Translations under genes and position numbers: made by a program
Notes under the pieces: model-generated
The model's input: only the letters and a program-made list of their open reading frames with translations
Told to the model about the DNA's origin: nothing
Databases searched by the model: none
In this document: positions 344 through 63,550 of the stretch, in pieces
How positions within the stretch are numbered: position 1 is the first letter of the stretch
How the letters are laid out: every line of letters begins with the position of its first letter
Source of the DNA: Patescibacteria group bacterium
Lineage (GTDB): Bacteria > Patescibacteriota > Minisyncoccia > Minisyncoccales > RBG-13-36-15
NCBI GenBank assembly: GCA_018609195.1
Contig: JAHCSE010000001.1
Coordinates: forward strand, 9,559 to 73,558
Direction of reading: 5' to 3'
Length of the DNA stretch: 64,000 bases

Positions 344-1105
344 TCAACTTCTACTAACTGCTTTTACTAATATAACAAATTCTCTGGGATCTAATGAGGC
401 TCCCCCAACTAATAAGCCTTGAAAATTTGCCTCAAAAATGTAGGAGGCGGCGTTCTTGCCATTCACGCTTCCTCCGTAGAGAATTTTTATGGTTTTAGCT
501 AATTTTTTGTCATAGATTTTGGAAATAACTTTTTTAATAACATCGAGAGATTTTTTAGCTTCCCTTGGTGAACAAGCTTTTCCTGTTCCTATTGCCCAAA
601 CAGGTTCATAAGCGATTGCTAATTTTGAGTTTTGAATGTTGAATGCTGAAATTTTTGATAGAGCTTTTTTTAATTGATTTTTTAATATTGTTTGTGTTTT
701 GCCCTGTCCTCTCTCTTTTCGAGTTTCACCAATACATAAAATTGGGCTTAATTTTCTCTTGAGAGTCACTTTCAATTTTTTATTTATCATTTCATCAGTT
801 TCCTTTAAATATCTTCTCCGTTCAGAATGACCAATAATAACATATTTACAACCTGAATCTTTTAGCATTTTAGGAGAAATTTCTCCTGTAAAAGCTCCCT
901 TTTCTTCCCAGAATACATCTTGTGCGCCTAAATGGGGTTTGTAGTTTGTAGTTTGCAGTTGGGATAAATAAAGAAATGGTGGACAGATAACCACTTCTAC
1001 ATTTTTAACATTTTTTATCCCTTTCTTAAGTGAATTAAAAAGCTGCTTAGCTTCAGTCAAAGATTGAGGGTTCATTTTCCAATTTGCGACAATGAGTGGT
1101 TTCAT
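344..1105 (-). CDS. tpiA: triosephosphate isomerase
   Basis: 253 aa with VANWKMN, IGHSERR and AYEPVWAIGTG motifs. Confidence 0.92.
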   Translation of the reverse strand: MKPLIVANWKMNPQSLTEAKQLFNSLKKGIKNVKNVEVVICPPFLYLSQLQTTNYKPHLGAQDVFWEEKGAFTGEISPKMLKDSGCKYVIIGHSERRRYLKETDEMINKKLKVTLKRKLSPILCIGETRKERGQGKTQTILKNQLKKALSKISAFNIQNSKLAIAYEPVWAIGTGKACSPREAKKSLDVIKKVISKIYDKKLAKTIKILYGGSVNGKNAASYIFEANFQGLLVGGASLDPREFVILVKAVSRS

Positions 1106-2208
1106 TGTTTCCTTAAATATTCAGCTGCTTTTTCCGGCTCAATAGTCGAAATTTCTATCCCTGTTCCCAGTTCAAAACCGGCCCAGACCCCAGTTTTAGG
1201 TAATACTTCAAAATGCCAGTGATAGTGATCATAATTTTTGCCATCGCAGGGAGCAGTATGTAAGAAAAAATTATAGGCAGGGTCATTTAAACCCTTAAAG
1301 ACTCTTTTGAGAGTCTGTTGAAGAGCTTCCGCCAAAGCCCATTTTTGCTCCTCATTTACTCGTTCAAAATAGGCGTGATGTTTGAGGGGGAAAATTCTGG
1401 TCTCAAAAGCCACTCTGGAAGCAAAAGGACACAATACCACAAAATCTTTATTTTTAAAGATAATCCTTCTGCCGTCTTTGAGATCCCAGTCAATCATTAC
1501 GCAATGGACGCACTTTTTATTTTCTTCAAAAAAGCGTTCAGATCCTTGAAGACTGGATTGAATATCAGGATCGGTTAAGGGCATGGCAATAATTTGAGAA
1601 TGGGGGTGGAAAACTGATGCTCCAGCTTCTGCTCCCTGATTATGGAAAATGGAAACGTAATTAACAAATTTCTCATTCATTAAATTCAAATATCTCTCTT
1701 GATAGGCATCTATTACCTCTTTAATTTGCTCTATTGAAAATTGAGCAATCTGTTTTACATGATCTCGGGTGATAACTACCTCATGAAAACCCATAGCATC
1801 CATTAACTGATAAGGACCTTCGGTTCTTTCATTTAAACTGGTATCTCTGGCAAAAGCTGGAAATTTATTAGGAATAACAATAGTTGTCCAGTTTTTAGGG
1901 ATGTCTAGGGGCCCGTCTTTAGCAGGAGGGCGGAGGGTGGGTTGGAGACCAAAGGGTACTTTTTTGCCTTCAGTGAAAATCAAAGTTGGTTTTTCTTGAG
2001 TTTCCAAATGACAAAAAGGGCAGGTCTTTTTTGGGGCGATAACAACTTTCCTTTTTTCTCTTTTAAAGGTCTCTGGCCGCTTAGCTCTGGCTGTAGCAAT
2101 AGTTATCCAGTCTTTAGAAACAAGGTCAAAACGAAGTTCGGAGGGACAAACTCCTGGGGGGCAAACCTTTAATTCTTTTTCGATCATTTTGATATGTTTT
2201 TTAGCCAT
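1102..2208 (-). CDS. galT: GalT-type hexose-1-phosphate uridylyltransferase (HIT superfamily)
   Basis: 368 aa with CPFC zinc knuckle, IPNKFPAF and FHPHSQ (HxHxQ) active site. Overlaps tpiA by 4 nt. Confidence 0.75.
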   Translation of the reverse strand: MAKKHIKMIEKELKVCPPGVCPSELRFDLVSKDWITIATARAKRPETFKREKRKVVIAPKKTCPFCHLETQEKPTLIFTEGKKVPFGLQPTLRPPAKDGPLDIPKNWTTIVIPNKFPAFARDTSLNERTEGPYQLMDAMGFHEVVITRDHVKQIAQFSIEQIKEVIDAYQERYLNLMNEKFVNYVSIFHNQGAEAGASVFHPHSQIIAMPLTDPDIQSSLQGSERFFEENKKCVHCVMIDWDLKDGRRIIFKNKDFVVLCPFASRVAFETRIFPLKHHAYFERVNEEQKWALAEALQQTLKRVFKGLNDPAYNFFLHTAPCDGKNYDHYHWHFEVLPKTGVWAGFELGTGIEISTIEPEKAAEYLRKQ

Positions 2209-2932
2209 ATTTTTTCGTGATCACATTCCATCTTATTTGGAAAACCTCAAAAAGCATCTTTATCATTCCTTTCAGTTTTACCTTGCTTTCAGGATCATTA
2301 ATCCACTTTACCGGGATCTCTTTTACTTTATAACCTAATGTCTTAGCTATTACTAAAATTTCAACATCAAAAGCCCAGCGATTAATTTTACATTTTGGTA
2401 AAATATCATCTACCGCCTTTTGTGTAAATCCTTTAAAACCACATTGAGTATCCCAAATCCCCCACAAGCCAGAAACTACCTGAACAATTAAATTAAAAAT
2501 ATCCCCCAATCTCCTTCTTATGAAAGATTGAGGAACAGCAATGACAGCTCCCTTGATATCTCTCGACCCAATAACAACTTCAAAACCCTTTTCAAGCTCT
2601 GGCCACATTTTCTCAACTTGATCAATAGAAGTAGCATTATCAGCATCAGTAAACAATCTGTACTCCCCTTTTGCCTCTAACATTCCTTGCCTTACCACAA
2701 AACCTTTCCCATTATTTTCTTTATTATCAATCAATCTCAGATTTTTTATTCGACTTTGTAAATTTTTTACAACTTCGGCAGTCTTATCTTTTGAGCCATC
2801 ATTAACCACAACTATCTCAGAATCATAATTTTGCTTTCTTAAATACTTATCAATCTCAGTCAAAGTTTTTGGCAAACGCCTTTCTTCATTATAAACAGGA
2901 ATGATAACGGATAAATAAGTTCTATTTGGCAT
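2201..2932 (-). CDS. family 2 glycosyltransferase (polyprenyl-phosphate hexosyltransferase-like)
   Basis: 243 aa with SVIIPVYNEE, VVNDGSKD and TDADN (DxD), indicating a GT-A fold. Confidence 0.8.
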   Translation of the reverse strand: MPNRTYLSVIIPVYNEERRLPKTLTEIDKYLRKQNYDSEIVVVNDGSKDKTAEVVKNLQSRIKNLRLIDNKENNGKGFVVRQGMLEAKGEYRLFTDADNATSIDQVEKMWPELEKGFEVVIGSRDIKGAVIAVPQSFIRRRLGDIFNLIVQVVSGLWGIWDTQCGFKGFTQKAVDDILPKCKINRWAFDVEILVIAKTLGYKVKEIPVKWINDPESKVKLKGMIKMLFEVFQIRWNVITKKYG

Positions 2933-14113: not shown

Positions 14114-14132
14114 ATTGTTATTACAGAGCGAA

Positions 14133-14271
14133 GTCGCTCGCCCTCCTCCAGCCTTTGGCTGGCGGTCGCCTTCGGCGACCTTCGGGCTCGCTCTTTAGAA
14201 ACCCTCGGTTTCTAACACTCGCTTCGCTTGCTGTTTTCCTACACGGGAGAACCTATGGTTCTCCCGACCCC
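14133..14271 (-). repeat. module A element, copy A1 (4 hairpins)
   Basis: Sense strand: GGGGTCGGGAGAAC-CATAG-GTTCTCCCGTGTAGGAAAACAG..TTAGAAACC-GAG-GGTTTCTAA..GTCGCC-GAA-GGCGAC..CCAGCC-AAA-GGCTGG..AGGAGGGCGAGCGAC. Confidence 0.85.
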
Positions 14272-14923
14272 TCTCCATTTTGGGCAGCAAATTGGGTTTC
14301 AGGAATGTCTCTTTTATTATATTTATTGATTCTTTAGGTATTAATAAATATTTGAAAGAAAGTAAGTCCAAGGGATTTAAATCTTTAGTCTGGGTAGTTT
14401 CTACTTTAGGAATATTTTTTGAGGCTCTAATGACAGCTTCCTCTTTTGTAGGAAGAGCAATCAAACAAGATGCTTTTTTTATTGGTAGATTATTTAAAAT
14501 CTCAACAATCAATTTTGTCTTTGGTTTATCTAATTTTAAAGAATCCAAAAGAACTATTAAATTTTCTTTAGCTTTCGTTGATAATACCATAAACAAAGCT
14601 TTTCTTCTCATTTTTTTAGGAATTTTTTGCTTAAAAACTCTCGTTTTTCTTGGTCCAAAAGTGATTCCTCCTCCTCGCCAGATTGGAGAACGAATAGAGC
14701 CTGCCCTCGCTCTCCCTGTTCCTTTTTGCCGCCAGGGTTTTCTTCCTCCACCCCGAACCTCAGCTCTAATTTTGGTATGAGCGATAGGAATCCTTCTATT
14801 TGCCATCTGGCTCACCACTACCTGATGTACTAAATCAGGATTGATTTTCACATCAAAAATTTCTTTTGGTAATGAAGTTTTCCCAACTTCTTTTCCTTCT
14901 TGATTGTAAGTCTTAATAAACAT
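14195..14923 (-). CDS. rplD: 50S ribosomal protein L4 (C-terminus reads into repeat A1)
   Basis: L4 motifs (RGGGRKPWRQKGTGRAR). There is no stop before the repeat, so the last ~25 codons (..ERGRENHRFSRVGKQQAKRVLETEGF) are encoded by element A1. Confidence 0.9.
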   Translation of the reverse strand: MFIKTYNQEGKEVGKTSLPKEIFDVKINPDLVHQVVVSQMANRRIPIAHTKIRAEVRGGGRKPWRQKGTGRARAGSIRSPIWRGGGITFGPRKTRVFKQKIPKKMRRKALFMVLSTKAKENLIVLLDSLKLDKPKTKLIVEILNNLPIKKASCLIALPTKEEAVIRASKNIPKVETTQTKDLNPLDLLSFKYLLIPKESINIIKETFLKPNLLPKMERGRENHRFSRVGKQQAKRVLETEGF

Positions 14924-14931
14924 AAGTTAAT

Positions 14932-15080
14932 AGCGAGGGTAAGTTTTTCAAAGAGCATCTCGGAGGCATCGCTGGCATGGTGTCCGAGCGCAACGAGGAA
15001 CAGCGACGCCGAGAGTTGAACAAAATTTTCCTCGCTGGGGAAAATTATTGTGTCTCTTTGAGGAAGCTTTGCCCGAACGC
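14932..15080 (-). repeat. module B element, copy B1 (149 nt)
   Basis: About 91% identical (13 mismatches by eye) to 20288..20436. Fills the whole rplC-rplD spacer. Imperfect terminal inverted repeats GCGTTCGGGCAAAGC / GCTTACCCTCGCT. Confidence 0.85.
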
Positions 15081-15674
15081 TTATCCTCTAATTTCAAGCA
15101 GTGTTCCTTTTGCTCCTGGTACTGCTCCCTTCACTGCTAATAAATTATTTTCTGCATCAACTTTCACAACTTTTAAATTTTTCACTGTAACTCTTTCAAA
15201 GCCCATTCTGCCTGGCATTTTTTTTCCTTTAATCACTCTCTCTGGGAATGAAGAACCAACAGATCCCGGAGTTCTGGCTTCATGCTTTACTCCGTGAGAA
15301 GCTCCTCTTCCAGCAAATCCCCATCTTTTGACTACTCCGGCAAATCCTTTTCCTTTTGAGATACCAGAAATTTTCACTTTTTCTCCTTCCTCAAAAATTG
15401 AAACATCAATCTTTTGCCCTTCTTTAAAATCCTTTGCTTTATTTTTAAATTCTCTTAGAAATCTGAAAGGTTTTTTCCTCAGTGGTTTTTTAATCCGCTT
15501 TTTTTTCTCTATTTTTTTAAAACCGAGTTGAATAGCTTCGTACCTATCTTTTTCTTCGGTCTTCACTTGCGTGACAAAACAGGGGCCAGCCTCGATTACT
15601 GTTACTGACAAGACATTACCTTTTTCATCAAATATCTGGGACATTCCTAATTTTTGACCAAGAATAAACTTCAT
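15081..15674 (-). CDS. rplC: 50S ribosomal protein L3
   Basis: 197 aa; GKGFAGVVKRWGF and FKEGQKIDVS motifs. Confidence 0.93.
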   Translation of the reverse strand: MKFILGQKLGMSQIFDEKGNVLSVTVIEAGPCFVTQVKTEEKDRYEAIQLGFKKIEKKKRIKKPLRKKPFRFLREFKNKAKDFKEGQKIDVSIFEEGEKVKISGISKGKGFAGVVKRWGFAGRGASHGVKHEARTPGSVGSSFPERVIKGKKMPGRMGFERVTVKNLKVVKVDAENNLLAVKGAVPGAKGTLLEIRG

Positions 15675-15873
15675 ACTTTCCTACGAATTACTCTATCGCT
15701 AAGCGACTCCCCGGAGGGTTGATATTTGCGAATATACGAATAATAATTTTCCAACAAAATACCGGGCACTAACCCGGTACTTTATTTTGTAGGTTAGTTA
15801 ATTTTATAATTTTATAAATTTTTGAAATAATTATTTCTTATCATAATGAGATAAAAAATATATTCGTAGGTAT

Positions 15874-15900
15874 CTACATTTTTATTTCGATATCACCTCC
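15874..15900 (-). repeat. orphan duplicate of the last 8 codons + stop of rpsJ
   Basis: ctacatttttatttcgatatcacctcc versus 16010..16036 ctacatttttatttcgatgtcaactcc (25/27 identical). Lies on the far side of element A2. Confidence 0.85.
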
Positions 15901-15990
15901 GTCGCTCCGCTCCTTAGAAACCCGCGGTTTCTAACGCTCGCTTCACTCGCTGTTTTCCTACACGGGGAGACACCCAGTCTCCCCGACCCC
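15901..15990 (-). repeat. module A element, copy A2 (short form, hairpins 1-2)
   Basis: Sense: GGGGTCGGGGAGAC-TGGGT-GTCTCCCCGTGTAGGAAAACAG..TTAGAAACC-GCG-GGTTTCTAA-GGAGCGGAGCGAC. Confidence 0.85.
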
Positions 15991-16009
15991 TTCTGTGCGG
16001 AGTTGCCAT

Positions 16010-16354
16010 CTACATTTTTATTTCGATGTCAACTCCGGCTGGTAAATTTAAATTCATCAGAGAATCGATCACTTTTGAGCTAGGATTTAAAATATCAATG
16101 AGTCTTTTGTGAATTCTCGTTTCAAACTGTTCTCGGGCATCTTTGTGGATAAAAGAAGATCTATTGACGGTGTATTTGTGAATTTCAGTTGGTAAGGGGA
16201 CAGGTCCCGAGACCTCCGCCCCATATCTTAAAACAGTCTCCACAATCTGCCGAGCACTGCTATCTATAACTTTGTGGTCATAGGCTTTAAGCCTTATCCT
16301 AATCCTTGGCTTAACTTCTTCCTCAATTTCTTTTGATTTTTCCTTAACTTTCAT
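16010..16354 (-). CDS. rpsJ: 30S ribosomal protein S10
   Basis: 114 aa; [15 protein letters not shown] and [14 protein letters not shown] motifs. N-terminal K/E extension. Confidence 0.94.
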
Positions 16355-17847: not shown

Positions 17848-17925
17848 CTATTTCCTCTTTCCCTCAATGATCTCCTGAGTAATATTCTGAGGTACTTCTC
17901 CGTAATGGTCGAATTCCATCGTAAA
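17848..17925 (-). pseudogene. orphan second copy of the last 25 codons + stop of fusA
   Basis: Encodes [25 protein letters not shown] versus the fusA end [25 protein letters not shown] (22/25 aa identical, 54/78 nt identical). Confidence 0.85.
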
Positions 17926-18089
17926 GTCGCTCCGCTCCTCCAGTCTTCGGCTGGCGCTCCCCGCCAACATCTTCGAAGTTGTGGCGGGTCGCTTCGCTCC
18001 GCTCCCCAGACACCTCTCGGTTTCTGGCGGTCGTCGCTTCGCTCCTCCCTGTTTTCCTACACGGGAAAACACCCAGTTTTCCCGACCCC
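17926..18089 (-). repeat. module A element, copy A3
   Basis: Sense: GGGGTCGGGAAAAC-TGGGT-GTTTTCCCGTGTAGGAAAACAG..CCAGAAACC-GAGA-GGTGTCTGG..two further hairpins..GGAGCGGAGCGAC. Confidence 0.85.
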
Positions 18090-18120
18090 TTTCTGCTTCA
18101 CTATGGAGTTTTATCTAAAA

Positions 18121-20256
18121 TTATCTCCGTTTGCCTTCTATAATTTCTTGTGCGATGTTCCCTGGCACTTCACCGTAGTGATCAAACTCCATAGTAAACG
18201 TTCCTCGGCCTTCGGTCATCGATCGCAAAGCTGTGGCATAACCAAACATCTCAGCCAGAGGAACTTTAGCTGAAATTATTTTCAAATTTAACCTATCTTT
18301 TGTTTCTTCAATCTTCCCCCTCCTCGCTCCTAAATCCCCAATAGTATCTCCAAAAAATTCAGAAGGAATAATTACTTCTAATCTCATTATCGGTTCAAGT
18401 AAAATAGGTTTTGCTCTTTTGGCGGCCGTTTGCAAAGCAGCAGATGCAGCTATCTTGAAAGCAAATTCTGAGGAATCAACCTCATGATAGGAACCATCAT
18501 AAAGAGTCACTTCGATGTCAACCATAGGATAGCCTGCAGTTATCCCTTTTTCCATAGCTTCCTTCACTCCTTTTTTCACAGCGGGGATAAATTCTTTTGG
18601 GATGATTCCTCCTTTAATCTCGTCGATAAATTCAAATCCCTCTCCTCGTGTTTTGGGCCGAATTTTCAAGAAAACATGACCATATTGGCCTCTGCCGCCT
18701 GATTGTCTAATATATTTTCCTTCAGCTGAAGTTTCCTCTTTTATTGTTTCTTTATAGGCAACCTGAGGTCTTCCGGATGAAGCTTCCACCTTAAATTCTC
18801 TTCTCATTCGATCATTAATTATCTCTAAATGGAGCTCCCCCATTCCTGAGATAATAGTTTCTCCCGTTTCTAAATCACTTTTAATTTTAAAAGTGGGGTC
18901 TTCCTCAGCCAATCTTTTCAAAGCTAAACTCATTTTCTCTTGGTCGGCCTTCGTTTTCGGTTCAATTCGAATGGAAATGACAGGTTCTGGAAAGGTAATT
19001 TTTTCTAAGACAATGGGGTTATCAGGGTCACAAAGAGTATGACCAGTACTAGTTTTTTTTAATCCAACCGTAGCCCCAATATCTCCAGCGAAAAACTCTT
19101 GTACTTCCTCACGATCTGCCGCATGCATCCTTAAAATTCTCCCAATTCTCTCTTTCTCGCCCGTAGTTGCATTTAATACATAAGAACCTCTTTTTAAGCT
19201 ACCTGCATAAACTCGGAAATAATTTAAAGTTCCAACATAAGGATCAGCAGCAGATTTAAAAACCAAAGCGGAAAATGATTCTGAATCTAAAACTTTTCTT
19301 TCAATTTCCTGACCATTTCGAGGATCAACTCCTCTCACCGGAGGTAAATCCAAGGGGCTAGGCAAAAAATTCACAATTCCATCTAAGAGAGGCTGAATTC
19401 CTTTATTTCTCAAAGCTGATCCACAAAATACCGGGATGAGTTTGTAGGAAATTGTGGCTTTTCTCAATACTTCTCTCAATTCATTGATTGAAATTTCCTT
19501 TTTGGCTAAGTATTTCTCTAAAAGTTTCTCATCTTCAGCTGCAATTTTCTCCACTAATTTTTCTCGCCACTCTTTAGCGATCTTGCGCAAATTTTCAGGT
19601 ATCTCTTCTTCAACAACATTCTGGCCAAAGTCACCTTCAAATTTTAAGGCTCGCATTGTAAAGAGATCAATCACTCCTTCAAAATTTTCCTCGCTACCAA
19701 TTGGTAATTGAAGAACCACCGCCTGGGGAGATAATTTTTCCCAAATTGATTGCAAGCTCTTTTCAAAAGAAGCTCCTGTCCTATCCATTTTATTGATAAA
19801 GCAAATTCTGGGAACAGAAAATCTATCTGCTTGATGCCATACCGTCTCAGATTGAGGTTCTACTCCTGCTACTCCATCGAAAATCACTACCGCCCCATCC
19901 AAAACTCGCAAAGATCTTTGTACTTCCGCTGTAAAATCAATATGGCCAGGAGTATCAATAATGTTTATTCGATACTCATCTTTTTTGCTTTTTTCTTTGG
20001 ATTGACCGGGGGCGGTGTGTGGGTGATAGGTGGATGGAGTCCAAAAACAAGTAGTGGCTGCAGCTGTAATAGTAATTCCCCTTTCTTTTTCTTGAATCAT
20101 CCAATCCATTATTGCCTCCCCTTCATGAACTTCTCCAATTTTATGAGAAATTCCAGTATAGAAAAGCACCCGCTCAGTAACGGTTGTTTTCCCAGCATCG
20201 ATATGAGCAATAATACCAATATTGCGAGTTCGTTCTATTGGATACAAACGAGGCAT
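18121..20256 (-). CDS. fusA: elongation factor G
   Basis: [17 protein letters not shown] and NKMD motifs; 711 aa. Confidence 0.97.
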
Positions 20257-20287
20257 AATTTGTAGAAGCGGATTTACGCGGATCTAA

Positions 20288-20436
20288 AGCGAGGGTAAGC
20301 TTCTCAAAGAGCATCTCGGAGGCGTCGCTGGCAAGGTGTCCGAGTAAAGCGAGGAACAGCGACGCCGAGAGTTGAACAAAATTTTCCTCGCTGGGAAAAA
20401 TTATTGTGTCTCTTTGAGGGGGCTTTGCCCGAGCGA
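20288..20436 (-). repeat. module B element, copy B2 (149 nt)
   Basis: See B1. Contains a 10-bp stem GGCGTCGCTG/CAGCGACGCC and a long-range stem CTCAAAGAG/CTCTTTGAG. Confidence 0.85.
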
Positions 20437-20452
20437 ATCACCAAGCCAAATG

Positions 20453-20603
20453 GTCGCTCGCCCTCCTCCAGCGCAGAGCGCTGGCGGACGCCTTTGGCGT
20501 CCTTCGGGCTCACTCCCCAGACACCTCTCGGTTTCTGGCGCTCCTTCGCTTTCGCTCAGTCACTGTTTTCCTATACGGGGAAACACCCAGTTTCCCCGAC
20601 CCC
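20453..20603 (-). repeat. module A element, copy A4
   Basis: Sense: GGGGTCGGGGAAAC-TGGGT-GTTTCCCCGTATAGGAAAACAG..CCAGAAACC-GAGA-GGTGTCTGG..GACGCC-AAA-GGCGTC..CCAGCGC-TCT-GCGCTGG..AGGAGGGCGAGCGAC. Confidence 0.85.
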
Positions 20604-20609
20604 TTTCTG

Positions 20610-20635
20610 CCACTTTGCGTTACCACGCAAAGTGG
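20610..20635 (-). promoter_or_regulatory. 10-bp hairpin enclosing the rpsG stop codon
   Basis: CCACTTTGCG-TGGTAA-CGCAAAGTGG on the sense strand. The stop codon is in the loop, and the 3' arm abuts element A4. Confidence 0.7.
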
Positions 20636-30731: not shown

Positions 30732-31253
30732 TTAGTATTCAACCCCTATTTTTGCTAAAACCCCTTTTTTAAAAGGGTGTTTTATTTCTTTACATTCAGT
30801 TGCCAAATCAGCAATCTTAATTAACTCTTTGGGGGCACCTCTCCCAGTAAGAATTAAATCTACTTCAGAAGGAGCTTTTTTTAGAATTTCCAAGACTTCT
30901 CTTAATTTAATGAGATTTAAAGAGATGGCAACATTTACTTCATCTAAAATTATCAAGTCAAATTCTCCAGAATGAATCGCATTTTTGGCAATTTTTAAGG
31001 TCTCTCGGGCTGCAAGTTCGTGAACTTCTCGGGGAAGCTTGTCCCCCATTATCCCAACAAAACCTTCTCCGCCTTTTATCAATTGAAATTTTGGTTCTAG
31101 GCTTTGGATGGTCTTTTCCTCGCCAGTTGGCCATTTTTTACTTTTAATGAACTGAATCATCAAAACTCGCTTTCCCTGGCCAACTGCCCGAATTCCCTGG
31201 CCAATGGCAGCTGTCGTTTTCCCTTTTCCATTCCCAGTAAAAACAAAAATCAT
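30732..31253 (-). CDS. cobO: ATP:cob(I)alamin adenosyltransferase (CobA/CobO/BtuR type)
   Basis: 173 aa; P-loop GNGKGKTTAA and ILDE motif. Overlaps nrdJ by 4 nt. Confidence 0.85.
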   Translation of the reverse strand: MIFVFTGNGKGKTTAAIGQGIRAVGQGKRVLMIQFIKSKKWPTGEEKTIQSLEPKFQLIKGGEGFVGIMGDKLPREVHELAARETLKIAKNAIHSGEFDLIILDEVNVAISLNLIKLREVLEILKKAPSEVDLILTGRGAPKELIKIADLATECKEIKHPFKKGVLAKIGVEY

Positions 31254-33553
31254 GTTTGAGGTATTTGAGCAGGTACACTCCCTTCTTCAGAGTCAAACTC
31301 ACACACACCTCCTACACAGGCTAACTCTTTGAAACCTGTGGTTTCATCTTCTTTCTCATAAACGATAATCTGGGCAAAGTCAACTTTTGGTAGTTTCTCT
31401 ACCAGTTCTTGATATTTTTCCTCATCGATTTCCTCGTAGGGAGCAAGTCGATAGACATGTTCTGCGCGTGGAATAAAAGAGAGCCCTCCTAAAATATTCC
31501 AGTTATCATAAAGCCAGTATGTAGCTTGAATCCACTCGTTCTCACCTACAGAAACGGTAACTGAGGGATTATGCTCGGTGAAATTTTCCTTCACCATCTT
31601 CCAGTGTCTAAGTTGATCGAGTGCTGTTAAATCATTTCGGAAAACAGCTCTCTCGGGAGATTTTACTGGAAACTCAAGCACAAAGGTCGTGGCCGAGTCC
31701 TCGAGCTGTCCAACTTCAGGATGATATGGAAATTTTTGTTCTTTCAACATTTGGAAAAGAGGGTCATTTGCCGATATACGAACTCGTCTAATATAAAAGG
31801 GAGAGTGTCGAGGGTGCATACCAGAGGCAGCATCCACAAGTTGAGATAATGTACCTGAAGGTTTGACACAGGTGATGCAGGTTGATTCCGAAATCCCAAA
31901 TTTCTTGGCATATTCACGATTGATTTCGAGCGATCTTTCCCGAAGTTTCCTGAGGGTTTCGGCTGATCTAGCTGCAGGACAATCCCACTGACCGGTTATC
32001 GAAATTCCTAAAAGCCTTTCCTCCTCGCAGTTTTGCTTCCATTCTTTTGAAAGATAAGAAAAATTGGTGAGAGTAGATTGATAGGTACCGAGCAAGGTGG
32101 CGATTTCGATCTTTTTCAGAAGAGATTCTTCAGTATCCTCGGGTCTGGCCACTACCTCGGTTAAATTGCAAAATTGTTTGGATCTTAATATAATTTCTCC
32201 GCATGGATTTGTGCCGGCAGTGGCCCAATATTTTTTAAATGTCTTCCAGCGCCTCTCTGGTAATTGATGTTTTAATCCTCCTCTATTAAAAATGCCTCTC
32301 TCGCCAGTTCCACTTTTAGCGAGCGCTAACCATTCTTCAAGAAACTGGATTGCGCTGGGTTTCTCATTATAAACCGCGGAGTTGTTGGCCATCGATCTCT
32401 GAGGATCAGTAACATAAAACTGGCCAGCTTTAGCTCCCCTCATATCTTCATCGTCGAGATCAGAAAGGGATATTAAAGCAGATCTTCGCACTCCACCCAT
32501 CACTACAATTTCCCCAATTTTGCAGATAATGTCATGAACATCAAGATTGGAGAGGCGTTTTCCTTGACGACTCAAAACTTTAGAGCGAACAAAATCTAAA
32601 AGTGATTTAAGTGCCCCAGGGCCTGAACTTCGACCTCCCATGGTCTTTAACTTTGATCCTGCTGGCCGAATCTTGGAGTAATCAAATATAATATCTTTAC
32701 CATTATACCAGGCTTTAAGTCCGATAGTTAACGCATCTCCCCATCCCTCTTTGCTGTCTAAAATTACATGGGCAGGTAATACTTGACCGGTCTGGCGTTT
32801 CACAATTGGTAGCTGCTGGACCGTTTGACTCTCCACTGAGAAGCCAACTCCTGTACCGCACATTAAAAGATATATAATTTCAGCAAAATCACGAAACTCG
32901 CTTGGTGCAATAAAAGAACAGTTATACACTGAGACATTGGAAGCCCTCGCTGCTTTCCCGGCAGCCCATAAAAGTCTCATCGATGGCATCACTTGATGAT
33001 TTAGGATTGCCTCTTTTATTTCCTGGTATTCGTTATCTCTTAACTTCTTGCCAAGATTCTCTCTCATGAAATCCACATAGCGATTGACCGTCTCAATCCA
33101 GGTTTCTCTCCTTCCCTCCTCTTCAATCCAGCGAGAATAAGTACGATAATAAATAAACTCAGCCAGCTCATTCCTGAAATATTTCCTACTCTTTCGCACA
33201 AGACCCTGCACCCGCTCGGGAATTAACTTCTTTTTTTCCCGAACTTCAGCTCTTGCTTGCCGATAGAGAATGTAAGCTTTTGCTGTCTTTGGAAAATCTC
33301 TCAGAATCAGAGTTTCTTCTACTAAGTCTTGAGTCCCCTCCACTTGAGGAATGTGAGGAGGAGGATAACGCTTCTCGAGTTTTTTCACTACCCTGTCTGA
33401 AATTCGAAGAGGATCTCGCGAAAGATTCCCTTCCCCAGCAGCTTGCATTGCTTTGGAGATTGCATTGGTAATTCGATTTTGGTCAAACGGAACAATATTG
33501 CCTTCTCTTTTTCGAATTTCTTTAATTTTATTTTTCAATTTTGGAAGCTGCAT
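31250..33553 (-). CDS. nrdJ: class II (adenosylcobalamin-dependent) ribonucleotide reductase with N-terminal ATP-cone
   Basis: 767 aa; ATP-cone (VRKREGNIVPFDQNRITNAI), TNPCGEI active-site loop, C-terminal Cys pair. Confidence 0.88.
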   Translation of the reverse strand: MQLPKLKNKIKEIRKREGNIVPFDQNRITNAISKAMQAAGEGNLSRDPLRISDRVVKKLEKRYPPPHIPQVEGTQDLVEETLILRDFPKTAKAYILYRQARAEVREKKKLIPERVQGLVRKSRKYFRNELAEFIYYRTYSRWIEEEGRRETWIETVNRYVDFMRENLGKKLRDNEYQEIKEAILNHQVMPSMRLLWAAGKAARASNVSVYNCSFIAPSEFRDFAEIIYLLMCGTGVGFSVESQTVQQLPIVKRQTGQVLPAHVILDSKEGWGDALTIGLKAWYNGKDIIFDYSKIRPAGSKLKTMGGRSSGPGALKSLLDFVRSKVLSRQGKRLSNLDVHDIICKIGEIVVMGGVRRSALISLSDLDDEDMRGAKAGQFYVTDPQRSMANNSAVYNEKPSAIQFLEEWLALAKSGTGERGIFNRGGLKHQLPERRWKTFKKYWATAGTNPCGEIILRSKQFCNLTEVVARPEDTEESLLKKIEIATLLGTYQSTLTNFSYLSKEWKQNCEEERLLGISITGQWDCPAARSAETLRKLRERSLEINREYAKKFGISESTCITCVKPSGTLSQLVDAASGMHPRHSPFYIRRVRISANDPLFQMLKEQKFPYHPEVGQLEDSATTFVLEFPVKSPERAVFRNDLTALDQLRHWKMVKENFTEHNPSVTVSVGENEWIQATYWLYDNWNILGGLSFIPRAEHVYRLAPYEEIDEEKYQELVEKLPKVDFAQIIVYEKEDETTGFKELACVGGVCEFDSEEGSVPAQIPQT

Positions 33554-35679: not shown

Positions 35680-35826
35680 AAAAATGTGTCCTCCTCCGTT
35701 AAAACTTTGGAGGACATGGATGGCATTCTGACTTTCACAGTTACGGCATAGTCCCGGATTTCCTGCCCGCATCGCTATACGAAGTATTGCAGGCGGGTCA
35801 CCGGAGTTCCCCATCCGTTTTCAAAG
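35680..35826 (-). promoter_or_regulatory. cobalamin riboswitch with terminator expression platform
   Basis: Sense strand: GGATGGGGAACTCCGGTGA...GGAAATCCGGGACTATGCCGTAACTGTGAAAGTCAGAATGCCATCC (B12-box-like AGTCAGAATGCC; P1 stem GGATGG/CCATCC). This is followed by the hairpin TGTCCTCC...GGAGGACA and T7. Confidence 0.78.
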
Positions 35827-35837
35827 TCCGTTAATAA

Positions 35838-49562: not shown

Positions 49563-49721
49563 TTATGCACATCCACCGCAGCCCCCTTTTTCTTTATGAG
49601 TATGTCCGCACTTCGAACATTTTTCCTGACGCTCCGCTCCACAGCAGGTCCCAGGGCTTTCAGTAGACTCTGAACCACAGCCGGGACAAATATGTGTTTT
49701 TTCGGTTGTTTCTTCTGCCAT
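49563..49721 (-). CDS. 8-Cys micro-protein 1 (52 aa), unannotated
   Basis: Own translation: MAEETTEKTHICPGCGSESTESPGTCCGAERQEKCSKCGHTHKEKGGCGGCA. Paralog of 51189..51338. Confidence 0.6.
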   Translation of the reverse strand: MAEETTEKTHICPGCGSESTESPGTCCGAERQEKCSKCGHTHKEKGGCGGCA

Positions 49722-51188: not shown

Positions 51189-51338
51189 TTAAGCTGCGCA
51201 ACACTCTTTGGCGTACTTACCCGAACCACATCCACAAACCTTTTCTCTTGATGCACCACAACACGTTCCTCCTTCTTCACCCTCGGGAGGTGTACTGCCA
51301 CAGCTTTGGCATTTGTACTGGTCTTTTTCTTCAGCCAT
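51189..51338 (-). CDS. 8-Cys micro-protein 2 (49 aa), unannotated
   Basis: Own translation: MAEEKDQYKCQSCGSTPPEGEEGGTCCGASREKVCGCGSGKYAKECCAA. Confidence 0.6.
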   Translation of the reverse strand: MAEEKDQYKCQSCGSTPPEGEEGGTCCGASREKVCGCGSGKYAKECCAA

Positions 51339-63346: not shown

Positions 63347-63390
63347 TCTCTTTTATTGTATTGGAATTTTAATTCCGATACAACACAGGA

Positions 63391-63512
63391 GGGGTCGGGA
63401 GGATTGGGTATCCTCCCGTATAGGAAAACAGGCTTTCAGGTGAGCGAAGCGAAGACTGAAAACGTTAGAAACCGTGGGTGTCTAAAGAACATGGTGCCGA
63501 GCGTTAGCGAGG
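63391..63512 (+). repeat. module A element, copy A6 (opposite orientation)
   Basis: Plus strand: GGGGTCGGGAGGAT-TGGGT-ATCCTCCCGTATAGGAAAACAG..GAGCGAAGCGAAG..TTAGAAACC-GTG-GGTGTCTAA.. Confidence 0.8.
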
Positions 63513-63550
63513 TCTATGTTCTTATACCGCATTTTATTCACAAACAAAAA

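Follow-up and report, generated by a model that had tools for sequence, protein, structure and literature searches.

The end of rpsJ, the gene for ribosomal protein S10, raises the question of why a conserved gene should be followed by a short GC-rich insert and then by a second copy of its own end, and why the insert should open with a complement of the point at which that copy begins. The locus lies in a 64,000-nt stretch of a Patescibacteria group bacterium (GenBank assembly GCA_018609195.1, contig JAHCSE010000001.1, positions 9,559 to 73,558 of the forward strand), which we call the window and number from its first letter. An earlier note, made from the sequence alone, had seen in this arrangement a sign of sequence-guided insertion or copying. 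We found its rpsJ sequences and coordinates, all on the minus strand, to be correct to the base, and chance is excluded. The gene end, GGAGTTGACATCGAAATAAAAATGTAG, is followed directly by a 19-nt linker, ATGGCAACTCCGCACAGAA, in which CAACTCCG is the exact reverse complement of CGGAGTTG in the gene. Next comes a 90-nt core of 60% G+C, compared with 38% for the window and genome, which ends in GGAGCGGAGCGAC, and directly after the core stands a second gene end, GGAGGTGATATCGAAATAAAAATGTAG, identical to the first at 25 of 27 positions, with the identity extending 2 nt (AT) beyond the stop codon. We refer to the upstream and downstream copies of the duplicated segment as X1 and X2, and to the complementary part of the linker as the guide (Table 1). 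When the region was folded as RNA, the linker paired with the beginning of the gene end in a 12-bp hairpin with one A-G mismatch, CGGAGTTGaCATC / GATGgCAACTCCG, which we call P1 and for which the first 8–12 nt of X1 supply the 5′ strand; besides P1, the core formed two strong hairpins, and the z-score against shuffled sequences was -3.97.

The same core recurs in the window. Its motif CCCGTRTAGGAAAACAG was found five times against 0.03 expected, and a covariance model of the core recovered exactly the same five copies and none further, each at E<1e-20 (for the rpsJ core, 100 bits and E about 1e-26). The copy at fusA, the other case in the earlier note, is real, with a 78-nt duplication and a 15-nt guide, AAACTCCATAGTGAA. 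At rpsG we found a third case of X1, guide, core and X2 that was absent from that note: here the sequence reads CCACTTTGCG-TGGTAA-CGCAAAGTGG, so that the hairpin loop consists of the last six bases of the gene, X1 is CACTTTGCGTGGTAA, and X2, after the core, is CATTTGGCTTGGTGA.

Among the loci that we collected from other genomes for comparison (designated by L-numbers), this layout was present at more than 20 independent sites in other Patescibacteria, at the ends of protein genes and at tRNA T-loops. The protein-coding cases included the same fusA codon in four genomes (the window, L007, L004 and L017), rpmG (L086), L022, L074, L018 and L009. We compared the 23 nt before the core with the preceding 260 nt in the 61 copies that had enough flank, counting exact complements. 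Complements of at least 8 nt occurred in 34 of the 61 copies, as opposed to 7 of 61 in a control with the linker reversed, and complements of at least 10 nt in 21 copies and in none of the controls. With three genes in the window, more than 20 loci elsewhere and this excess over the control, the recurrence of the pattern at genes with different X is not a coincidence. The claim that the duplication begins where the complementarity begins was borne out as well: in duplicated loci the upstream copy started 0–3 nt from the 5′ end of the complement (the offset was 4–7 nt at tRNA sites), and the downstream copy began at the last base of the core, X2 following directly after GCGAC(T). The fusA guide of L017, AAATTCCATTGT, starts 3 nt deeper in the gene than that of the window, and the duplication likewise begins 3 nt later; because the two shift together, the edge of the duplication follows the guide and not the codon. 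Across the family, guides were 8–19 nt long and paired with a site 6–110 nt upstream, duplications measured 15–113 nt, and the spacer between X1 and guide was 0–16 nt, or longer at tRNAs.

A 17-mer scan of one genome per species (596 Gb) returned 117 loci, of which about 49 were true elements, nearly all of them in Patescibacteria (the candidate phyla radiation, CPR), including Saccharibacteria, Paceibacterota, Parcubacteria and others; several metagenome-assembled genomes of Saccharibacteria are among the carriers, for example L004, L018 and L037. The other loci were about as many as a 17-mer should produce by chance in a search of that size. With the covariance model, the number of copies in the loci collected rose to 66. 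Each element is about 0.1–0.2 kb long, with a GC-rich, non-coding core of 90–190 nt, and no open reading frame (ORF) was found inside the elements. From 5′ to 3′ we observed a variable guide, a purine-rich linker, GGGGT, hairpin S1, an invariant joiner (GTRTAGGAAAACAG), a variable hairpin S2, CG, hairpin S3 (TTAGAAACC-GNG-GGTTTCTAA), a terminal helix and a final C. Repeats of GAGCGA, which form tandem G-A pairs, make up the terminal helix, into which further hairpins may be inserted; the invariant single-stranded stretches that join the hairpins of the core are GGGGT, GTRTAGGAAAACAG and a terminal GAGCG..GCGAC. S1 and S3 covary strongly: 97.8% of cells were paired and 133 cells had changed on both sides; none of 500 shuffles did as well, and slid controls gave 27–62% pairing. 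Three copies, the second copy of L094 and those of L128 and L057, are circularly permuted, being opened in the S1 loop. These permuted copies (L094, about 2140..2300; L128, 8660..8770; L057, about 565..650) start with the 3′ strand of S1 and GTGTTGGAAAA(A)YAG, finish with GGGGGTCGGGG, and adjoin tRNA or rpsS-rplV junctions.

No Rfam family matched at the elements, whether in the window at gathering score, in 6.8 kb at E<=10 or on the 181-nt element alone at E<=10, and the element can therefore be filed under none of group I, HDV, hatchet, twister, HEARO or the other Rfam families. In the literature that we searched, we found no description of the family, the nearest entry being conventional group I introns in Patescibacteria tRNAs (PMC13011429), and it is apparently undescribed so far. 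Two pattern scans of viral contigs gave no true copy. The flanking genes encode ribosomal proteins, EF-G, EF-Tu and tRNAs, and about 78% of copies are co-oriented with their neighbours, antisense copies also being present. The earlier note had asked whether the linker is always complementary to the edge of a duplication, and had counted copies that lack these features as a refutation. The rule held for a large subset but not throughout, and the refuting case is thus present in part, since about 45% of family members have no detectable duplication and some lack a guide hairpin. As these non-duplicating classes exist, one intergenic and just upstream of start codons (including the copy at rplD in the window) and one consisting of the hairpin only (including the copy at 63.4 kb), the X1, guide, core, X2 architecture is a property of that subset and not of every copy.

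A comparison of presence and absence, as the earlier note had proposed, bears on whether the elements move. We used the 80 closest EF-G relatives, all from metagenomes and 59–84% identical over the C-terminal 259 residues. An element behind fusA was present in 0 of the 80, and their str/S10 operon DNA (552 kb) contained only two copies, both elsewhere than at the ends of fusA, rpsJ and rpsG. All 22 relatives that cover the rpsJ end had a plain gene end there, as did all but L007 of those that cover the rpsG end. L007 is the closest genome that we found (EF-G 82% identical, nucleotide identity 78–80%); it carries the element at rpsG and fusA but has an empty site at rpsJ. Because of this empty site, the rpsJ insertion must be younger than the split between the window and L007. 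X1 and X2 of rpsJ also share TAG followed by AT, whereas L007 has TGA followed by CC, which indicates that the duplicate was copied from resident sequence. These observations agree with the view of the earlier note that the rpsJ event is recent. Four genomes carry the element at the same fusA codon, and one of them, from Saccharibacteria, has 65% EF-G identity. The presence of the family is thus patchy, with one recent, in-place duplication at rpsJ and the same conserved sites occupied in distant lineages, and purely vertical inheritance was rejected on account of the empty sites in relatives.

The pairing itself is maintained. The rpsG hairpin reads CCACTTTGCG/CGCAAAGTGG in the window and CCATTTTGCC/GGCAAAATGG in L007, so that two synonymous changes in S7 codons of X1 are matched by changes in the guide, and a third compensatory pair occurs at fusA (GAG/CTCC versus GAA/TTCC). 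From these pairs at rpsG and fusA we conclude that P1 as such is conserved, the guide being kept paired with X1 by selection or by templated correction.

The reading that we prefer, with a probability of roughly one half, is that of a mobile element, non-autonomous and directed by its guide, which either produces long duplications of the target or brings them with it. It has a structured core, a target-complementary guide at the joining point, and a duplication that runs past the gene terminus in either orientation. In this reading, the guide would pair with one strand of the target and so fix the joining point, and after insertion the target segment from the joining point to just past the gene end would be present twice. 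X1, upstream of the guide and contiguous with the gene, would keep the gene intact; X2, displaced to the far side of the core, would then decay or be kept similar to X1 by gene conversion. New sites would be entered by a transposition that gives a long target-site duplication of variable length, most likely by way of an RNA copy of guide and core and of staggered breaks, which a factor with its gene elsewhere would close by fill-in or reverse transcription; the precise 3′ junction, the 0–16 extra bases at the 5′ junction and the variable duplication length would resemble the products of target-primed reverse transcription. Once established, units of X1, guide and core would move into that conserved site in further lineages by a homing-like replacement. 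Insertions would survive only where the gene terminus is so near that the duplication can restore it, and this would explain why copies are found where essential, conserved genes end and in the T-loops of tRNAs.

Several points weigh against this reading. A Pfam scan of the 20 larger non-ribosomal ORFs of the window identified no reverse transcriptase, transposase, recombinase or ligase. What that note had called sequence-guided insertion or copying has therefore stood as regards the non-randomness and the guide-linked duplication; the mechanism is something we infer, no enzyme, RNA intermediate or partner gene having been found. The reading gives no account of how a guide for a new target is acquired; in a single case the rpsJ guide CAACTCCG and the fusA guide share AACTCC, which hints at off-target hopping followed by adjustment. 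Several duplications, including that of L022, end exactly at a stop codon or at the end of a mature tRNA, which random staggered breaks would not predict. The long X2 copies of fusA are intact frames in all four genomes, with differences that are almost only synonymous, which agrees with X2 being a relic only where the two copies came together recently or are often converted; tracts of 45–60 identical nt support conversion. The roughly 45% of copies without a duplication have conserved flanks of their own, and mobility with duplication may be only part of the biology of the family. Finally, the co-orientation of about 78% of copies could be explained by a role at the RNA level or an RNA intermediate, or by a replication-strand bias.

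A more specific version, in which the core would be a new catalytic RNA that mobilises itself, seems to us improbable. The partner of the guide would be either an exposed strand of DNA or a target RNA present in abundance. The ribozyme would cut at the 5′ edge of the helix and ligate the downstream fragment to its own 3′ end, and this chimera (guide, core and target tail), or else an excised circle (X1, guide and core), would then be copied back into the genome. In HDV-like and hatchet ribozymes, cleavage takes place at the 5′ base of the first helix, and circularly permuted natural variants exist. The elements resemble them in having a P1 of free sequence directly 5′ of a conserved core, a unit boundary at the 5′ base of P1 and permuted variants, and differ in matching no Rfam model; the topology is compatible, and catalysis is putative. 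If this version were true, the element would be an RNA-guided transposon with minimal need for protein that automatically duplicates the gene terminus it interrupts. It would also be a targeting module made of RNA alone and open to reprogramming, drawn from organisms whose genomes are minimal.

Whether X2 is a relic or is used decides much between our reading and its main rival. At rpsJ, X1 is the functional gene end and encodes GVDIEIKM-stop, as in all 22 relatives; X2 encodes GGDIEIKM-stop, and because the V-to-G change hits an S10 residue that is invariant in those relatives, X2 is probably a relic. Similar damage was seen in the rpsG X2 of L007, where a stop replaces the conserved final W, and in the X2 of L003, which has lost its stop codon. 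In most protein-coding cases X2 retains the reading frame and the stop position. The two copies of fusA (window and L004) and rpmG (L086) differ at nearly every synonymous site and at few amino acids (pN 0.07–0.14, pS saturated). We rejected an ancient insertion with a neutrally evolving X2 for fusA, as pN/pS is far below 0.5. The saturated synonymous sites accord with the earlier description of the fusA duplication as old or foreign. At fusA and rpmG, X1 may have travelled with the element from another lineage, for which the purely synonymous divergence would be as expected; this is supported by the fusA ends of relatives, which are about equally distant from X1 and X2. In L007 and L017, tracts of 45–60 identical nt between the long fusA copies point to gene conversion. 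The duplication at L022 is identical at 66 of 66 positions and belongs to the class that ends exactly at the gene terminus (a stop codon or mature tRNA end).

The rival would make X2 an exon. It regards the element as an intron-like catalytic RNA, self-splicing or self-cleaving with ligation by the host, whose guide would pair alternately with the starts of X1 and X2 as two reaction sites; X1, guide and core would be removed and the upstream gene joined to X2, and the stop in X1 would make the unspliced mRNA functional too, so that both copies would be under selection. We consider this unlikely, and we treat X2 as a relic. The highly conserved joiners, covarying stems and circular permutation are indeed as in small ribozymes, and Patescibacteria are rich in group I introns (PMC13011429), yet no Rfam group I, group II or ribozyme model matched the 181 nt even at E<=10, the pairing involves only the downstream side of the junction, and there is neither a U-G pair nor a terminal G. 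An exon role would account for X2 being always in frame with the same stop position in fusA, rpmG, L022, L074 and L018 and for the almost purely synonymous divergence of X1 and X2 (pN 0.07–0.09, pS saturated), but not for the damaged copies (the V-to-G change in S10, the W-to-stop change in S7 of L007 and the stop loss in L003). The guide can pair with the start of X2 as well, the L4 frame of the window has no stop and reads into the element, where joining past the element would give ...ETFLK-FAL-stop, and about 78% of copies are sense to their neighbours. Against these stands the second element of L017, which lies antisense inside the 5′ part of fusA and duplicates 113 nt (one mismatch) comprising the upstream region and the first 21 fusA codons; intact fusA is on the X1 side, and the orphan start reads into the antisense core. 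This copy cannot be spliced from the fusA mRNA and yet has the same duplication. From it we conclude that the duplication is made at the DNA level, independently of gene orientation, and together with the damaging changes in some X2 it argues against an ordinary spliced intron.

The tRNA sites speak on both sides of the same issue. At nine tRNA genes, we found a complete tRNA, a terminator-like hairpin, a guide directed against the T-loop, the core and a second 3′ part of the tRNA. In the downstream copies, either GA has taken the place of the T-loop TTC, which puts tandem G-A pairs across from the guide, or a mini-hairpin comes after the TTC; pairing with the guide persists on both sides. That the helix with X2 is kept in this way favours the intron-like RNA, while the intrinsic-terminator-like hairpin between tRNA and guide counts against it. 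Displaced copies with the GA change or with a mini-hairpin of the GCGAAGC type were seen in L035, L050, L053, L061, L066 and L023 and in L052, L094 and L108; their pairing is preserved as a three-way junction or as tandem G-A pairs, and this recurs across different tRNAs and genomes. In L066, different terminators follow X1 and X2, as would fit an X1 that is foreign or old.

The non-duplicating copies bear on another alternative, which we think improbable, namely that the element is a cis-acting RNA at cistron boundaries that benefits the host, either as an element for processing, "punctuation" or stabilisation or as a leader for translation initiation. The hairpin at the gene end would then be a 3′ stabiliser or a regulator of termination, and the duplications by-products of copying the element in. 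The intergenic class (L014, L033, L034, L055, L064, L091, L106, L112, L123 and others) has conserved flanks: CCCAYATCGGARRG precedes the core, and YTRAYTTWGTAKTACCACT immediately precedes the ATG of the following gene, which may be nusG, groEL, rpsN, rplF or the gene of an M50 peptidase. A search nearby and in the 3′ flank gave no partner and no consistent duplex for its 5′ flank, CCCAYATCGGA. Many copies fill the whole intergenic spacer and end at a fixed distance of about 18 nt before the start codon, with the flank TGACTTAGTATTACCACT-ATG (nusG, groEL, rpsN, rplF), and the copies of L097 and L029 abut the 5′ end of a tRNA or tmRNA. These features, the mostly sense orientation in highly expressed operons and the compensatory changes in P1 are what a cis-acting RNA would show, but even among close relatives copies occur very patchily, and sites in the same operons stand empty, which is unlike a needed regulatory element. 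A cis-acting role also gives no reason for the edge of an 8–19 nt guide to coincide with the edge of a duplication, and antisense copies exist.

We regard it as very unlikely that the elements are decayed integrative elements of the integrase type (prophages, integrative and conjugative elements (ICEs), integrative and mobilisable elements (IMEs) or cis-mobilisable elements (CIMEs)) that bring a replacement gene end and leave attL and attR repeats. e14 and phage 21 in icd are the classic examples of a gene-end duplication that preserves the gene, and such a duplication, like the targeting of tRNA and translation genes, is classic for these elements; X1 and X2 as diverged as orthologues from different species would also fit. 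The whole insert, though, is 0.1–0.2 kb with no ORF or integrase remnant, one structured core stands at more than 10 different target sequences where an integrase family has one attachment core, guide complementarity and compensatory evolution have no role in integrase recombination, and no copies were found on viral contigs. We also rejected translational bypassing ("hopping" of the T4 gene 60 type), which had been raised because X begins with GGA at rpsJ, as X1 completes the gene and the gap exceeds 130 nt.

Table 1. Element copies in the window and the parts of the rpsJ copy.
Feature	Position	Strand	Description
rpsJ ORF	16354..16010	-	
rpsJ gene end GGAGTTGACATCGAAATAAAAATGTAG	16036..16010	-	
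rpsJ X1	16008..16037	-	last 9 codons, stop TAG (16012..16010), 2 further nt, preceding C
Segment paired with the guide, CGGAGTTG	16037..16030	-	
rpsJ 19-nt linker ATGGCAACTCCGCACAGAA	16009..15991	-	directly after the gene end
rpsJ guide CAACTCCG	15998..16005	-	3′ strand of P1; helix reaches 12 bp with GATG 16010..16007
rpsJ linker CACAGAA(G)	15991..15997	-	purine-rich, between guide and core; family consensus roughly CAGRARG
rpsJ core (module A)	15901..15990	-	GGGGT, S1, joiner, S2, S3 and terminal mini-hairpin, in this order
rpsJ hairpin S1	15985..15963	-	followed by the invariant joiner GTGTAGGAAAACAG
rpsJ hairpin S2	about 15949..15935	-	within the core
rpsJ hairpin S3 TTAGAAACC-GCG-GGTTTCTAA	15934..15914	-	within the core
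rpsJ terminal mini-hairpin GGAGCGGAGCGAC	15913..15901	-	3′ end of the core
rpsJ X2	15872..15900	-	displaced second gene end, 25/27 identical, with the shared AT
Second rpsJ end GGAGGTGATATCGAAATAAAAATGTAG	15900..15874	-	directly after the core
fusA copy	17848..18198	-	X1 18198..18121, spacer, guide AAACTCCATAGTGAA 18111..18097, core to 17926, X2 17925..17848
rpsG copy	20438..20635	-	P1 5′ strand CCACTTTGCG 20635..20626; guide CGCAAAGTGG 20619..20610; core to 20453
rpsG X1 CACTTTGCGTGGTAA	20634..20620	-	
rpsG X2 CATTTGGCTTGGTGA	20452..20438	-	after the core
rplD-rplW copy	14118..14296	-	intergenic class; conserved flanks CCCAAAATGGAGAG and TTCGCTCTGTAATAACAAT-ATG; without clear guide or duplication
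63.4-kb copy	63357..63521	+	upstream of an HhH-GPD glycosylase gene on the minus strand, 11 nt from its start codon

The remaining copies in the window differ from those at rpsJ, fusA and rpsG. P1 of the 63.4-kb copy is a plain hairpin, TGTATTGGAATT-TT-AATTCCGATACA, with no clear duplication, and its 3′ domain is different (GAACATGG..CTATGTTC). At the rplD copy, a short P1 that had been an early idea is probably spurious. The rplD (L4) frame of the window (14195..14923, minus strand) has no stop at the ...ETFLK position where it is usual in relatives, and enters the element for about 34 codons, to a TAA (14197..14195) in hairpin S3. In L055, the rplO frame runs into its element in the same frame (..RGRENxRFSRVGKQ..). 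Almost all ORFs of at least 130 aa in the window are on the minus strand, as are four of the five element copies. The hairpins inserted in the terminal domain, CCGCCACAACTTCRAAGATGTTGGCGGGGAGCGCCAGCCGAAGRCTGGAG, are nearly identical in the fusA copy of the window (17926..18000, minus strand) and in L060 (1195..1352, minus strand), a copy at a different site in another metagenome-assembled genome (CR_Bin_053); this similarity suggests an exchange of modules between elements or genomes.

For S10 and L3, exact protein matches came from the same strain only, on contigs that are broken at the element. One such contig, L118 (SRR5189788_74148, from a public assembly of the same strain), ends at its position 2118, inside S1 of the rpsJ element, which shows that these repeats fragment short-read assemblies of these genomes. 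The elements thus break metagenome assemblies, create orphan tRNA and gene fragments that confuse annotation, and extend frames such as that of L4.

Other features of the window were noted alongside. The rpsG-fusA and rplC-rplD spacers (20257..20437 and 14924..15085, both minus strand) are each taken up by a second repeated module (TTCGCTCGGGCAAAGC..CCTCAAAGAGACACAATAATTTTTCCCAGCGAGGAAAATTTTG..), roughly 160 nt long, whose two copies are about 90% identical; it is kept at rpsG-fusA in L007 (7440..7685, minus strand) and apparently also in L124 and L120, neither of which has the main element. This module may act as a regulatory RNA or leader, or may itself be mobile. At 35713..35827 (minus strand), the aptamer of an AdoCbl-II (cobalamin) riboswitch scored above the Rfam gathering score; a ribonucleotide reductase gene (31250..33553) on the same strand starts about 2.2 kb downstream of it, beyond three ORFs. 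Two paralogous small ORFs rich in cysteine (49565..49720 and 51190..51335, minus strand) encode MAEE..CPGCGS..CCGAE..CSKCGH..GGCGGCA and MAEEK..CQSCGS..CCGAS..CGCGSGK..CCAA; the GGAGCGGAGCG-like strings within them were dismissed as chance partial matches to the 3′ motif of the element.

We compared the family with the known systems that it most resembles. Group I introns are abundant in the tRNA and rRNA genes of Patescibacteria (PMC13011429), and the elements are like them in being structured and RNA-like with a 5′ guide that pairs at the junction, in having a guide able to pair with two similar sequences (as in P1/P10), and in occupying conserved sites in conserved genes and tRNAs with a patchy, homing-like distribution in the same phylum. 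Unlike group I introns, which measure 200 nt or more, they have a core of 90–190 nt and no match to the Rfam model Intron_gpI (the P3–P9 core) at any threshold. Their guide pairs downstream of the junction and at most 0–3 nt upstream of it, with no U-G pair; they end in GCGAC and not in the G of an intron; the gene is complete through X1 without splicing; and one copy is antisense to its host gene.

With prophages, ICEs, IMEs and CIMEs that insert in tRNA genes, icd, rpsI or rpmG, the family shares an order of intact gene with an element-side end, insert and displaced original end, the choice of tRNA and translation genes, copies that may differ like orthologues, and flanking direct repeats of the gene 3′ end, here 15–113 nt. 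It differs from them in an insert 100-fold smaller, with no integrase in the insert or in the 20 window ORFs scanned, and in the use of one non-coding core with a target-complementary guide for many unrelated targets.

A third likeness is to IS200/IS605 elements, their miniature derivatives (PATEs), the omega RNAs of TnpB and IscB, and the bridge RNAs of IS110, in which base pairing beside a hairpin or scaffold sets the target. As in IS200/IS605 and its relatives, insertion is strand-specific, terminal inverted repeats are absent and the guide adjoins a structured scaffold. The TnpA of IS200/IS605 uses DNA guides of 4–5 nt adjacent to the element end and makes no target duplication, whereas the guides here are 8–19 nt and the duplications long; no TnpA (Y1) transposase was found among the 20 larger window ORFs scanned. 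The guides of omega RNAs derive from the flank, unlike those described here, and the guide RNAs of IscB, TnpB and IS110 have a transposase, nuclease or recombinase gene alongside, whereas the flanks here are genes for ribosomal proteins, EF-G, EF-Tu and tRNAs. No guide RNA of Rfam, such as HEARO, matched at the elements.

Retroposons of the SINE type, which move by target-primed reverse transcription, have several traits in common with the family: the structured RNA is non-autonomous, its 3′ junction is precise, and both the 5′ junction and the length of the duplication vary. R2-type elements, with their 5′ HDV-like ribozyme helix that includes upstream target, share a helix between the 5′ region of the element and the target. 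The differences lie in the bacterial host, duplications of up to 113 nt, a guide complementary to the start of the duplicated segment and the absence of a poly(A) or simple-repeat tail; a reverse transcriptase that might act as partner was absent from the window ORFs scanned. Miniature inverted-repeat transposable elements (MITEs) differ in that the ends here, GGGGTC... and ...GAGCGAC, are not inverted repeats and the duplication is 15–113 nt and not of fixed length. A diversity-generating retroelement was rejected, as the differences between copies are of all types, not adenine-specific and mostly synonymous, and no reverse transcriptase lies nearby.

Group I introns, integrative elements and the IS200/IS605, omega RNA and bridge RNA systems each have a tested defining feature that the family lacks, and the reverse transcriptase partner of a SINE-like retroposon was absent from the window ORFs scanned; we rate the family as a new kind of element that is filed under none of them. 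If it is the guide-directed mobile element that we favour, it would be a previously unnoticed class in CPR bacteria, whose genomes are among the smallest and most streamlined, built from a conserved RNA core of about 90 nt and a programmable guide. Its target would be set by a short, exchangeable complementary sequence and not by the DNA-binding specificity of a protein, and the host would be spared since the element rebuilds the terminus of the essential gene that it enters. Such an element would bring together three subjects that are usually kept apart: homing introns, integrative elements that carry a replacement gene end, and transposition guided by RNA.

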